64,000 bases of DNA from Promethearchaeota archaeon (lineage in GTDB: Archaea > Asgardarchaeota > Lokiarchaeia > Sigyniarchaeales > SOKP01): the NCBI GenBank assembly GCA_030603385.1, contig JAUVXW010000006.1, positions 64,001 to 128,000 on the forward strand, written 5' to 3'. Shown one piece after another: positions 1 to 4,839 of the stretch. How positions within the stretch are numbered: the stretch's first letter is position 1; every line of letters starts with the position of its first letter. A model generated the notes under the pieces. The model worked only from the letters and a program-made list of their open reading frames with translations, made no database searches and had not been told where the DNA came from. Made by a program: the position numbers and the translations under genes.

Positions 1-713
1 TATGTATTAATATAGCCATTAATTTTTTCTGAAAATTTTAAAGATTTATCAAGTTTATTTATACTTTTACCCGCTTGTTCAATTGAAAATGATCTCGGGC
101 AAACAGAATAACATAAACCACATTTCATACATGTTTCATCATTGATCTCTAAAGTATCTGCTGTGACTGTAATGGCATTTACAGGGCAAATTGATGAGCA
201 CCAACCACATTGACAGCATACTTCAGAATCAAACACAATAGAAACAGGTTCAAAAAAATGTTCAATAAAATCATCAGGTATCTCTTTAACTTGATATCTA
301 TAGAAAAATTCTTTTTCCTCGACTTCTTTTTCTTCTCCCTTTATTTTCTTAATAACGGTTTTGGTTTTAACTTCGATATGTTCTTCGATATATCCTTGTT
401 CTTTAAGATAAATAATATCACAAATGACGTTTTCTGGTGGAAAATCTTTTAGAATTTTTGAAATTTCCTCTAAAAATAACGGTTCCTTACCTATTAATGC
501 CTCTAACACTAATTTACGCTCTGTTTCAGCATCGATCATAGTATCTATTATTTCATAAAATTCTTCTTCAGAATATTTTCCAGTTTTCAAAATTTCATCT
601 TTTGCTTCGAAAAATGCCCTAATTTGAAAGTTTTCAATTGCTTTATAGGTCGCATCCATTAAATTCTTTGGAGATATTCCATCGAAATTTAGATTTTTTG
701 AAATTTGAACCAT
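1..713 (-). CDS. FrhB/FdhB-family (F420-interacting hydrogenase/dehydrogenase beta subunit-like) Fe-S protein with N-terminal helical/wHTH-like extension; runs off the window start
   Basis: Manual translation from ATG 713: MVQISKNLNFDG...CCQCGWCSSICP...CMKCGLCYSVCPRS... is open to base 1. It has two CxxCxxCxxxCP motifs followed by CPR, the same layout as the FrhB-like ORF at 11260. Absent from the ORF track because it is partial. Confidence 0.75.
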   Translation of the reverse strand, partial: MVQISKNLNFDGISPKNLMDATYKAIENFQIRAFFEAKDEILKTGKYSEEEFYEIIDTMIDAETERKLVLEALIGKEPLFLEEISKILKDFPPENVICDIIYLKEQGYIEEHIEVKTKTVIKKIKGEEKEVEEKEFFYRYQVKEIPDDFIEHFFEPVSIVFDSEVCCQCGWCSSICPVNAITVTADTLEINDETCMKCGLCYSVCPRSFSIEQAGKSINKLDKSLKFSEKINGYINT

Positions 714-783
714 ATTTCCGTCCTTTTGGATTACATTTTTAAAAAATTTTTATTTTTAATTGAATACTATTTAAAAACCCCTT

Positions 784-843
784 CCCTTGCAAGGTTAGTC
801 TTCTTATAACTAGAATTTGTTTATAAGAATCATTCTGCAGGGG
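784..843 (-). promoter_or_regulatory. Eukaryote-like SECIS element (selenocysteine insertion sequence)
   Basis: Minus-strand RNA is CCCCUGCAG-A-AUGA-UUCUUAUAA-ACAAAUUCUAG-UUAUAAGAA-GA-CUAACC-UUGCAAGGG. It shows helix I, an AUGA/GA core, a perfect 9-bp helix II and an apical AAA, and lies at the 3' end of two genes carrying in-frame UGA codons. Confidence 0.85.
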
Positions 844-1291
844 TAGTTATAACTTGTTTTGTATCAACTTTCATTTCTTCATCTTCTAAGTTCAGTGGAC
901 TTGGTCCAGCTTTTTTTACCTTTTCGTAAGCATCCTCGACAGATTCGACAAATTTCCCAGCATCTCCTCCACTTAACCAATACATATTTATTCTTTGACT
1001 ACCGAAACCTCTAGATTCTAAGATTCTATTTGCTAAATCAACATGCCTTTCGGCTGTGAAATTACCGTTTTTAAATTGACATTCATTAGGTCTTCAACCA
1101 ACAATCATAACACCATCAGCTCCCGCACGAATGCTATACAAAATGTGCTTAATGTCAACTCTCCCAGTACATCTTACTTTGATAATTTTTACCGCAGGAG
1201 TATATTTTAATCGGGAAACCCCAGCTAAATCAGCTGCGCTATATCCTCATTTTAAGCAAGCAAACACGATTATATTATACGTATTATTCAT
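830..1291 (-). CDS. mvhD: Hydrogenase delta subunit MvhD/VhuD ([2Fe-2S]), selenoprotein with 2 Sec
   Basis: Reads MNNTYNIIVFACLK-U-GYSAADLAG...VRCTGRVD...GADGVMIVG-U-RPNEC. In-frame TGA at 1249-1247 and 1096-1094 fall at conserved Cys/Sec positions. Stop TGA at 832-830. Confidence 0.92.
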
Positions 1292-1297
1292 GTTTAT

Positions 1298-3274
1298 TTA
1301 ACCACCTCCTAAAAGACCATCAATTTCAGCAAATAATTGATGATCGCGATAATATCTGATATCAATTGCTTGAGTAGGACAACACGTGGCACAAATACCG
1401 CATCCGTCACAATTTATTTCATCAATAAACGCACCGATATCCTTTTCAATCCTAATGGCATTTTTAGGACATTCTTTTTCGCATCGTCTACAAGAAATGC
1501 AGAATTCACTGTCCACCTCAGCAGTAATAAGTTCTATATCGATTTCTCCTGGTGATGTTAACTCAGCAACTTTACTTGCAGCAGCTCTAGCTTGAGAAAC
1601 TGAATAAGAAATATTTTTCGGTCCTTGAGCAAATCCAGCTATAAAAATGCCTTTCGACTTAGTCTCTTGCGGCATTAAACCGAAATGTGATTCTGTTAGA
1701 AAGCCATAAGTGTTAGTATCAAGATTTAAGACTTCTACAATTTGTTGGGTACCTTTTGAAGGGAGTGCTGCTGTGGATAACACAACTAAATCAGCATCAA
1801 TTATTACAATCTTATCTGTTAATGATGAATATACTCGAACTTTCACGTTTTTTGTTTCAGGATCTTCAGAAATTTCACCTACCTTCCCACGAATCATTCT
1901 AATACCAGCGTCTTTAGCTCGTTCATAGTATTCTTCAAATCCTTTTTCAGGAGTTCTTATGTCAATATAACAGATTGTAATGTTCGCATCAGGAAATTCT
2001 TCTAAAAGCAATCGCCCATTCTTTAGAGCAAGCATACAACACACTCCGCTACAATAAGTTCTTTCTGTTTCTCTACTACCAACACATTGAATAAAAACAA
2101 TTTCCTTAGGTTTCTTATTATCTGAAATTCGATGCACATGGCCTTCAAGTGGTCCATTTGGAGCTAATATTCGTTCTAATTGAACTTGAGTTATAACATT
2201 TTCAAATTCTCCATATCCGTATTCACCAAAAGGTTCATGTATGTCCCAACCAGTTGCTATAATGATTGTACCAACCTCGACATTGACTTCTTTGGGTTCT
2301 TGACTAAAATCAATAGCATCCAATTCACAAGCATCTACACACGAAAAACATTCTACACATGCATTTCTATCAATATCATATAGAAACGGCACTGCTTGGT
2401 CAAATGGAATATCTATTGCCCTTCGTGCTCCTAAATTTTCATCGAAATAATTCGTTGTATAAACTGGACAGACTTCAGCGCAAGCACCACACCCATTGCA
2501 TTCATCTGTTGTATATCGCGGTTTTTTCTCAATAGTTACGTTATAATTACCGACATATCCTTCGATATTCTTTACTTCACTATAAGTTAATAATTCAATA
2601 TTATCATTTCTATTAATTTTTAACATCACTGGACCACAGATTCAGATAGCACAGTCATCTGTAGGAAAAGTTCTGTCTAATTGAGACATTCTTCCTCCTA
2701 TCGTAGTCTTAAGTTCTACCAGATACACCTTAATACCTTGATTCGCCAGATCTAGAGCTGCGTTCATACCCCCGATCCCTCCTCCTACAACTAAAGTGGC
2801 TTTAGTGACAGGAACAGTTTTAATAGGAACAGGTTCTAAGCGTTTAGCTCTTTCAATACCACTTTTTACTAAAATTTTCGCTTTTTCTGTAGCTTCTTCT
2901 TTGTTATCAGTACACCATGAACAGTGTTCACGAACATTGACCATTTGAAAGTAATAGGGATTTAAGTCTGTTTTAGCAATTGTACCCCTGTAAATCACTT
3001 CATGAGTTCGAGGGGTTCAAGCCGATGCTACTATTCTATTTAGATTCTTTTCTTTGATATCCTCTATTATCTCATTTTGTGCATTATCAGTTCAAAGAAA
3101 TGCATTCTTCTTTGAGATTATAATTTCATCAGGAAATTCGCTTTTAACATATTCTACTAGTTCATCGCAGTCAACTTTGCTTCTTATGTCTGTATTAAAA
3201 ATTTGAAATAAATTTTTTTTTATACCTCACTGACATGCATAGTATCCAATCCGATGATTTTCATTACTAATCAT
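1298..3274 (-). CDS. hdrA: Heterodisulfide reductase subunit A (flavin-based electron bifurcation), selenoprotein with 4 Sec and a predicted 30-nt intron
   Basis: ORF-track pieces 1298-2629 and 2642-2998 and the upstream sequence form one frame broken only by TGA at 3229-3227 (CQUG), 3094-3092 (FLUTD), 3019-3017 (SAUTPRTHE) and 2644-2642 (FPTDDCAIUI), all at conserved Cys positions. Also has a GGGIGG FAD motif, ferredoxin motifs and CVGSR. An alternative ATG lies at 3289. Confidence 0.92.
3190..3219 (-). other. Predicted 30-nt BHB-type mRNA intron in hdrA
   Basis: Central helix GUAU/AUAC (4 Watson-Crick pairs), bulges AA^A and AG^A, and an 8-bp intron stem AAAAAUUU/AAAUUUUU after one A-A mismatch. 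Removal converts CQUG-IKKNLFQIFNT-DI to CQUGINI, matching the HdrA CxCGxNI consensus. Confidence 0.7.
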
Positions 3275-3852
3275 TCTTTTTTTACACATCCACCTCGTGC
3301 TTTTACAAAATTGTATATAAATAAATTTCTTAAATGTATATTGGATCATTTTTAAGTTCCAATATAGATCTTTAGGTCACGATCAATATTAAATATTTTT
3401 TTTAATAGTTTATTCATTTTCAATGTTTTTAATACTTACTATTTATCGATATAATCAAATTTTTATGGAACGGTCGCAACATTAAAACATTTTTAACCAG
3501 ATTGAAAGTTTTTGGTTATTTAATTTTGGAAAGTGTTAAAGAAAGTTGGGTTTATGATCGATCTTAAACATTTTCGGGTCAACGATGGATCGAGGTTGGA
3601 CCAGAAGAAGGTCCCTGGACTCTTGCTCCCCCTCTCCTACAGTTTTCAATGTTCACCTATGATATTATAATTGAAATGGGGCTTTTTACGATGTGCTTTC
3701 TAGCAATTCCTCATTTTTTGAAATTGATAAAGTCTGAAAAACAAGATTAACTCCCTTTTTTTTTATAATTTTTGTTGATCTCCTATAATATTAAAATATT
3801 ATATCTCCAACTAATATCCTTAATTAAAAAAATTGATAAAACGAGAGAATTT

Positions 3853-4839
3853 CTAAATTAGATTCTTAATAATATCATTATTTAAATATTCTTTATAATA
3901 GTGGGATTTATTTAACAGGTATTTTCGCGCAAAAGGCCTAACCATCATCATGAATAATCGAGAAATTGCTACTTTTTTTCTCACAGCATTGAAATAATCA
4001 TCAATTGTATGTTGTTGATATTGTAGAAGCTTTTGACTTTTATCTGTTGTCATGAATCCACAATGAAAACCTTTTGTACTAAATGCTTCAGGAGGCAACT
4101 CTTCGGTTCCAATTCCAAAAATGTCTAACATCTCTCTAAGATATTCTCTATATGAAATTCGACACCTTGATCCACCTGCGATATGTAATATTTCACTCCA
4201 AATTTCTTCGTTTTCGACTGCATTAGCTAAAGCAAAACCAACATCTTTAGTATCACAGATTTCAATACACGTATTTAAGGGCATTTCAAACATAAGCGGA
4301 TCCATTTGAAGTTTATTGATAGATACGATATAGGTTAAACGACATATTACCCACTCTAATCCTGAGTTTTTAATAAGTTCTTCACACTTTACTTTTTGTT
4401 TAGCATACTCATCATCATCATTAGGATTAAGCGGATCAGTTGTTCGAATTAATGGATTTTTAGTTCTGTCACCATATATTGCTACTGAAGAGGTGAATAT
4501 GAGTTTTGGTTTTTGTAGTTGTTTCTTCATAGCTTCGATGATATTTGAGGTTCCCCCAACATTTACGGCTTCAGCAAATCTAGGTTTTCTATCAGCAAGT
4601 GGAGGTATTATAGCAGCCACATGAATAATAACATCACAACCATAAACTGCCATCTCTACATCTTTAGGGTTTCTTAAATCCCCCCACATTATTTCTACCT
4701 GATCTTTAAACTTTTTTGCATTACGACGATTTTGTTTATTTTTTATATCAAAAACTCTTACATCATAGTTTCTTTTAATTAATTCTTTCAATGTACTTAA
4801 TCCAACATTACCAAAAGCTCCTGTTAATAATACTTTCAA
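3853..4839 (-). CDS. NAD(P)-dependent epimerase/dehydratase (extended SDR, 3-beta-HSD-like)
   Basis: N-terminal TGAFGNVG Rossmann motif, HVAA, TSS and YAKQK (YxxxK). Confidence 0.8.
   Translation of the reverse strand: MKVLLTGAFGNVGLSTLKELIKRNYDVRVFDIKNKQNRRNAKKFKDQVEIMWGDLRNPKDVEMAVYGCDVIIHVAAIIPPLADRKPRFAEAVNVGGTSNIIEAMKKQLQKPKLIFTSSVAIYGDRTKNPLIRTTDPLNPNDDDEYAKQKVKCEELIKNSGLEWVICRLTYIVSINKLQMDPLMFEMPLNTCIEICDTKDVGFALANAVENEEIWSEILHIAGGSRCRISYREYLREMLDIFGIGTEELPPEAFSTKGFHCGFMTTDKSQKLLQYQQHTIDDYFNAVRKKVAISRLFMMMVRPFARKYLLNKSHYYKEYLNNDIIKNLI

Follow-up and report, generated by a model that had tools for sequence, protein, structure and literature searches.

How can a gene that is interrupted four times by TGA encode a complete enzyme, and what would the residues at these codons do? 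This question is raised by a minus-strand gene near the start of a 64,000-nucleotide (nt) stretch of DNA from a Promethearchaeota archaeon of the order Sigyniarchaeales (Lokiarchaeia; GenBank assembly GCA_030603385.1, contig JAUVXW010000006.1, positions 64,001 to 128,000), which as a whole is called the window. The gene encodes HdrA, the soluble heterodisulfide reductase subunit A, and is followed by vhuD. An earlier reading of the DNA (the original prediction) had held that this HdrA contains four selenocysteine (Sec) residues, three of them at iron-sulfur ligand positions. We propose that hdrA and vhuD constitute a two-gene selenoprotein unit, in which all six in-frame UGA codons are decoded as Sec through a single selenocysteine insertion sequence (SECIS), and in which the N-terminal cluster of HdrA, HA3, has three selenium ligands and one sulfur ligand. 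The probability of this reading is put at about 0.68.

Table 1. Features of the hdrA-vhuD region, in window coordinates. HdrA residues are counted from the ATG at 3289; residues of 5odc_A are numbered by count along the alignment.
Feature	Position	Strand	Description
hdrA coding frame	3289..1298	minus	663 codons from ATG 3289, stop TAA 1300-1298
HdrA Sec21	3229-3227	minus	TGA, motif C-Q-U-G, second C-x-C position, = Cys13 of 5odc_A
In-frame AT-rich insertion, 30 nt	3219-3190	minus	directly after Sec21-Gly-Ile, adds ten residues
HdrA Sec66	3094-3092	minus	TGA, motif F-L-U-T-D, = Cys46 of 5odc_A
HdrA Sec91	3019-3017	minus	TGA, motif S-A-U-T-P-R-T-H-E (general C-[ST]-P-[RK]-x-H-E), = Cys71 of 5odc_A
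HdrA Sec216	2644-2642	minus	TGA, motif D-D-C-A-I-U, C213-x-x-U216, = Cys197 of 5odc_A
vhuD/mvhD (FlpD family)	1291..830	minus	153 codons, starts 6 nt after the hdrA stop
VhuD Sec15	1249-1247	minus	TGA, C-x-x-U-G, = X in M. maripaludis VhuD, Cys16 of M. marburgensis MvhD
VhuD Sec66	1096-1094	minus	TGA, G-U-R-P-N-E-C, = X in M. maripaludis VhuD, Cys67 of M. marburgensis MvhD
lokiSECIS	843-784	minus	eukaryote-like hairpin at the vhuD 3' end
Ferredoxin domain fused to FrhB/FdhB-like protein	3..713	minus	next gene after vhuD, runs off the window

The hdrA frame and its four TGA codons

When the hdrA frame was translated, it was found to be broken solely by the four in-frame TGA codons, and the standard code cuts it into five pieces. 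Five solved HdrA chains were matched by phmmer over residues 5-663 of the product, with E-values of 5e-194 to 3.6e-154; the best matches were 9sfi_A (5e-194) and 5odc_A (3e-186). The Pfam domains Fer4, Pyr_redox_2, and FAD_oxidored were recognized, and the layout consists of an N-terminal cluster domain, a flavin adenine dinucleotide (FAD)/thioredoxin reductase (TrxR) domain, an inserted ferredoxin domain, and a ferredoxin domain at the C terminus. In the alignment to the solved chains and to paralogs, the cluster-binding motifs (C-x-C, two lone Cys, a CxxC near the FAD, two CxxCxxCxxxC pairs, and the C...C..CC of the TrxR domain) were complete, each column being either Cys or TGA. Judged from its sequence, the gene is a genuine full-length HdrA of type I, as had been predicted. 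The second ATG, at 3274 and five codons downstream of that at 3289, is suggested to be the true start because the aligned orthologs begin there; a start at 3274 would subtract 5 from each residue number.

Each of the four TGA codons was confirmed to lie on a Cys of the solved chains 9sfi_A and 5odc_A, and the interval of the original prediction, 2642-3229, covers all of them, from 3229-3227 through 2644-2642. Position 216 is aligned with an X in 9sfi_A, that is, with the known methanococcal Sec site, so the fourth TGA is the canonical one, as had been supposed. The other three do belong to the N-terminal cluster-binding domain, where they take up three of the four invariant Cys. About 36 of the 663 columns are Cys/Sec columns, and four random stops would all fall on Cys columns with odds of ~1e-5. 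These odds, together with the conservation of TGA in the orthologs, exclude chance placement.

Conservation of the TGA codons

The codons were surveyed in 81 orthologous sequences, including the copy in the window, and only the readable columns were counted (76-81). In orthologs of 74-93% identity, TGA was kept at position 21 (76/76), position 91 (76/76), and position 216 (81/81). The TGA/Cys alternation anticipated among homologs was present at position 66, with TGA in 57 orthologs and TGT or TGC in 20, and the codons of Cys19 and Cys213 were always TGT or TGC. HdrA was found in 100 of the 101 genomes of the order; dozens of these, belonging to several genera, have an ortholog with 3-5 TGA codons at 66-94% identity.

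Among the full-length hdrA paralogs of the same genome, the Sec sites are nested: 21/66/91/216 are Sec in this gene, 21/66/216 in two genes, 21/216 in another two, and none in a further five. Sec21 and Sec216 occurred together in all 52 Sec-bearing HdrAs sampled, unlike Sec66 and Sec91, which flipped repeatedly among the sampled Loki HdrAs. Since a quick tree, built with the four Sec columns masked, placed the sampled Sec-bearing HdrAs in one clade, the co-occurrence of Sec21 and Sec216 is not independent evidence that the two are coupled.

As an observation in its own right, HdrA orthologs or paralogs with a fifth Sec were seen in other Loki genomes (loci L041, L042, L043, L054, L056, and L058). 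The extra Sec residues of other Loki HdrAs occupy classical ferredoxin or TrxR-domain cluster-ligand positions (314, 317, 417, 418, and 630/633 in the numbering of this gene), so that Sec at standard Fe-S Cys-ligand positions is also met outside the N-terminal domain.

vhuD and the shared SECIS element

The two TGA codons of vhuD sit on invariant Cys columns and coincide exactly with the two positions at which M. maripaludis VhuD has X; VhuD residues are numbered here one lower than in M. marburgensis MvhD. The 3' end of vhuD carries a hairpin whose shape fits the 'lokiSECIS' of Mariotti et al. 2016 (PMC4989117). It is made up of an AUGA (833-830), a 9-base-pair (bp) stem (829-821/809-801), an 11-nt A-rich loop (820-810), and a GA (800-799), above a weaker lower helix (843-835 with 792-784), and it is located 0.26-2.4 kilobases (kb) downstream of all six UGA codons. 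The UGA within its AUGA core (830-833) is the in-frame stop of vhuD; otherwise, the frame would continue for two more codons to the TAA at 823-821. This stop-in-SECIS arrangement is shared by most, not all, orthologs.

An Rfam scan of window positions 1-4000 (E up to 10) returned no SECIS family and only chance-level matches. The element was thus found by its pattern; for a SECIS of the Loki type, the lack of an Rfam match is expected. The SECIS was conserved across 27 distinct orthologous loci, with 95.9% of the upper stem paired and compensatory changes in 4 pairs; none of 500 shuffles matched the observed values (0/500), and slid controls were 41-56% paired. The orthologous loci that extend far enough have the same arrangement, with a single SECIS after vhuD and a non-UGA stop of hdrA, which is always TAA or TAG. 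When the organism's own genome was scanned with a strict SECIS pattern, matches lay downstream of 4 of the 5 hdrA paralogs that carry Sec, and the Cys-only paralogs had none.

Ligands of the N-terminal cluster

HdrA's N-terminal domain holds the [4Fe-4S] shuttle cluster HA3, also called A3 (PMC13580544, PMC12350162, PMC13518236). The only invariant Cys/Sec columns of this domain are Cys19 and positions 21, 66, and 91. In an AlphaFold2 model, residues 10-140 had a predicted local distance difference test score (pLDDT) of 89.7 and superposed on 5odc_A at 1.3 A over 130 columns; the residues 19/21/66/91 were placed at or just past the C-terminal ends of strands 1, 2, and 3, which is the usual cofactor edge of the fold. 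Most likely, Sec21, Sec66, and Sec91 ligate HA3 together with Cys19, which would give three selenium ligands and one sulfur ligand. The claim of three Sec at Fe-S ligand positions thus stands as to their location in the HA3 domain, at three of its four invariant Cys; the ligand role itself is deduced, and the literature differs on the fourth ligand. Each four-ligand set considered that was drawn from the N-terminal residues, whether residue 216 of the partner subunit was included or not, contains at least three selenium atoms, and His96 as the fourth ligand would leave two. A mostly selenium-ligated HA3, as proposed in the original prediction, is therefore retained under most of the sets considered, at the strength of a deduction.

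The original prediction had set the canonical Sec216 apart from the N-terminal center, and this part did not hold. In the double-HdrA paralogs, Cys213 and Cys216 are both retained by the half that lacks the N-terminal domain; the half that possesses it has lost these two but retains all four N-terminal Cys (and His96). At the level of sequence, this confirms that the CxxC pair acts in trans with the N-terminal domain of the other half and is gained or lost as a unit. The fused-paralog pattern gives mild support to four N-terminal ligands plus a separate CxxU pair. In recent (2026) cryogenic electron microscopy (cryo-EM) papers, Cys194 and Cys197 are likewise described as a separate pair, with an unknown ligand or a selenylsulfide between the FAD and the arm clusters; in PMC13518236, density that joins Sec197 to a Cys was seen between HA3 and the FAD, and a selenylsulfide shuttle was proposed.

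Under the proposed reading, the six UGA codons would be read as Sec from one polycistronic hdrA-vhuD mRNA under the single SECIS, and the Cys213/Sec216 CxxU pair would lie next to the docking site of the partner, between the FAD and the mobile-arm clusters. In VhuD, Sec66 (Cys67 of MvhD) would be a [2Fe-2S] ligand, by elimination among the five Cys, and Sec15 would be an extra, non-ligand Cys position facing the HdrA CxxC pair; Cys16 of MvhD was called an 'additional', non-ligand Cys in PMC13580544. Six selenium atoms would then stand at the gate where the mobile arm swaps electrons with the flavin, presumably to tune potentials or to speed one-electron transfer: they would belong to the two arm clusters (HA3 and the [2Fe-2S] of VhuD) and to the CxxU pair beside the bifurcating flavin, where these clusters would dock by turns. 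Since Sec21 and Sec216 are never apart in the sampled Loki enzymes, a direct Se-Se or ligand-swap contact on the shuttle cluster, between Sec21 and the Sec216 of the partner subunit, may also be considered, although it is unlikely.

Several points weigh against the proposed reading. The HA3 ligand roles of Sec21, Sec66, and Sec91 depend on their mapping to Cys13/46/71 in the HA3 domain. In a genomic paper (PMC9012536), the ligands of HA3 were given as N-terminal Cys together with the other subunit's Cys197, in which case one N-terminal Cys, perhaps residue 21, would be unligated. Four clusters were counted in HdrA in PMC4989117, and Sec was read there as catalytic and not as a cluster ligand; since that statement was made before the 2017 HdrA structure, in which six clusters were seen, one of them in the N-terminal domain, it should be revisited. 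The insertion of ten codons directly after Sec21 is unique to this genome, and the pairing of Sec21 with Sec216 may be one inherited state that was never undone. Furthermore, selD was not found across the contigs of this 94%-complete assembly, and Sec incorporation has never been experimentally shown in any Asgard archaeon (PMC9622424).

The alternative that survives best, possible but on the whole unlikely, is that some of the N-terminal Sec residues, above all Sec21, are non-ligand redox-active selenols that exchange with Cys213/Sec216 of the partner. In that case, Cys19, Sec66, and Sec91 would hold HA3 together with a fourth ligand (the partner Sec216 or His96), and the exchange would be similar to that of the cluster-adjacent Cys of ferredoxin:thioredoxin reductase or of the Cys-Sec pair of thioredoxin reductase. 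The naming of the partner Cys197 as an HA3 ligand, the Sec197-Cys density with its proposed selenylsulfide shuttle, and the extra, non-ligand Cys16 of MvhD all speak for this explanation, as do the invariance of His96 at the fourth MvhD ligand position and the constant company of Sec21 and Sec216 in the 52 Sec-bearing HdrAs. However, the cryo-EM structures have HA3 isolated on a mobile arm, which is hard to square with a fixed ligand from the other subunit, and the joint loss of Cys213 and Cys216 in the fused paralogs is the behavior of a pair rather than of a single ligand. A weak hhalign match (P 4e-4) pairs HdrA 66/91 with VhuD Cys41/Sec66, from which the topology would make Sec21 the extra Cys. 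Nevertheless, the hhalign probability was 35%, BLASTP of the HdrA N-terminal domain against VhuD was not significant, and in Foldseek the MvhD chains had template modeling scores of about 0.45 and ranked below unrelated flavodoxin-like folds; because this support is weak, the equivalence of the N-terminal domain and MvhD is only a lead. Even with exchanging selenols, HA3 would still have at least two selenium ligands.

Decoding of the UGA codons

The genome encodes tRNA-Sec (63 bits), SepSecS (391 bits), PSTK, and EFSec, and PSTK and EFSec each had their own family as the best match (selB for EFSec). ARAGORN found no tRNA in the window; tRNA-Sec is on another contig, about 200 nt upstream of SepSecS and about 5 kb from EFSec, in a loose Sec-machinery cluster (C41:42328-49673). 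The expected machinery was therefore recovered except for selD. A selD candidate at C34:124784-125536 was rejected as AIR-synthase/HypE-like. All 12 congeners searched carry selD, as two tandem genes with one TGA each, and for this reason and because the assembly is 94% complete, its absence is read as an assembly gap. A genome-wide reassignment of TGA was also rejected, since TGA still ends 13% of the long open reading frames in the genome. The four UGA codons of hdrA are very probably decoded as Sec.

Could the UGA codons not always be Sec, being read as Cys or another residue, or terminating when selenium is scarce to leave a Cys form or a fragment? The missing selD and the lack of experimental proof of Sec in Asgard archaea (PMC9622424) are what this explanation can call upon, and we regard it as very improbable. 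The SECIS, tRNA-Sec, PSTK, SepSecS, and EFSec are all present, and the selD of the 12 congeners itself contains TGA. Moreover, TGA is fixed at three sites in all orthologs read, whereas nearby Cys codons drift between TGT and TGC, and the Cys-only paralogs in the same genome could serve under selenium scarcity. The reading of the TGAs as nonsense mutations that mark a decaying hdrA, for which only the five pieces under the standard code would argue, has next to no probability and is refuted by their conservation across orthologs: every stop is TGA, every one is on an invariant Cys column, dozens of genomes from several genera share them (74-93% identity) without a frameshift, and the rest of the protein retains every cofactor motif.

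The insertion after Sec21

The 30-nt insertion is confined to this genome and is missing from all 80 other orthologs. Its residues had pLDDT values below 50 and were modeled as disordered by AlphaFold2. Excision of exactly 3219-3190 yields the ortholog motif G-I-N-I-R. A bulge-helix-bulge can be drawn by hand: positions 3225-3222 pair with 3195-3192 in a helix of 4 bp, each of the two bulges has 3 nt, and the A-U stem is 8 bp long. If the cut is made behind the second nucleotide of the bulge, the G-I-N-I-R junction results. The bulge-helix-bulge was not recovered by the minimum free energy fold (z -0.53).

Gene neighborhood

Downstream of the unit, the ferredoxin-FrhB-like gene comes first; another FrhB-like gene is next, then an HdrD-like gene (Fer4 + CCG) three genes downstream, and then double-HdrA/mvhD repeats. 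They make up a large same-strand array, which extends over window positions 3-713 and the stretch just before the window (C26:44001-64000) and includes four double-HdrA genes (~1,010-1,030 residues) and mvhD genes, all in Cys forms. Among the neighboring genes inspected, no hydrogenase or hdrBC genes adjoin the hdrA-vhuD unit. HdrBC-coupled, heterodisulfide-dependent ferredoxin-reducing bifurcation is putative for this HdrA.

Relation to known systems and implications

Multi-Sec HdrA and two-Sec VhuD with one SECIS are already published for Lokiarchaeota (2016), and the present locus is an ortholog. In the Loki HdrAs described by Mariotti et al. 2016, up to four Sec occur, distributed over five positions, and the canonical site is invariably among them; a two-Sec VhuD stands in tandem, one shared lokiSECIS serves up to six UGA codons over ~2 kb, and hdrA has non-UGA stops. 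A later survey found Sec-HdrA in 58% of the Sec-using Asgard archaea (ISME J 2024, PMC11227280). The locus resembles the Lokiarchaeota HdrA-VhuD units in its tandem genes, its very short spacer (6 nt here), and its four plus two Sec (up to four plus two in PMC4989117), and likewise in the lone lokiSECIS after vhuD (AUGA...GA, 9-bp stem, 11-nt A-rich loop), the TAA/TAG stop of hdrA, and the six UGA codons over ~2 kb. No essential difference from the published units was seen. Peculiar to this copy is the 30-nt in-frame insertion after Sec21; in addition, its vhuD stop is the UGA of the SECIS core, whereas PMC4989117 describes such a stop for vhuU, not vhuD.

Compared with HdrA of Methanococcales (the Hdr-Vhu-Fwd complex of M. 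maripaludis, 9sfi; the Cys form of M. thermolithotrophicus, 5odc), the product shares ~50% identity over the full length, the four domains, the cofactor Cys motifs, and Sec at the FPTxDCxxU site (Sec197), and the two Sec positions of the partner VhuD likewise coincide. The methanogen HdrA differs from the Loki gene in having one Sec, an all-Cys N-terminal domain, and a methanogen-type SECIS. Furthermore, the Loki hdrA adjoins FrhB-like and HdrD-like genes and not the Vhu hydrogenase as in methanogens.

The addition made here is that, in the domain carrying one iron-sulfur cluster, HA3, three Cys are replaced by Sec. In the literature searched, no paper was found that applies the 2017 structure to the Loki Sec sites as HA3 ligands, nor was a natural enzyme described with up to three Sec on one cubane Fe-S cluster. 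In [NiFeSe] hydrogenase and Sec-containing formate dehydrogenase, Sec replaces Cys as a redox-metal ligand in the energy metabolism of anaerobes. Those enzymes have one Sec on Ni or on Mo/W, whereas up to three Sec would bind one cubane here.

For annotation, the locus means that gene callers split this hdrA into five pieces. In the 2026 cryo-EM papers, the electron path from the FAD to the arm cluster in HdrA is an open question, and the role of the methanococcal Sec is unresolved. If the Sec21-Sec216 contact between subunits were real, the enzyme would be a natural selenium-labeled probe of the FAD-HA3 electron step. If the mapping of the three N-terminal Sec residues is true, HA3 would be a natural cubane cluster with mostly selenium ligands, and its selenium would itself serve as a spectroscopic probe (77Se, Se K-edge) of the electron step between the FAD and the arm.

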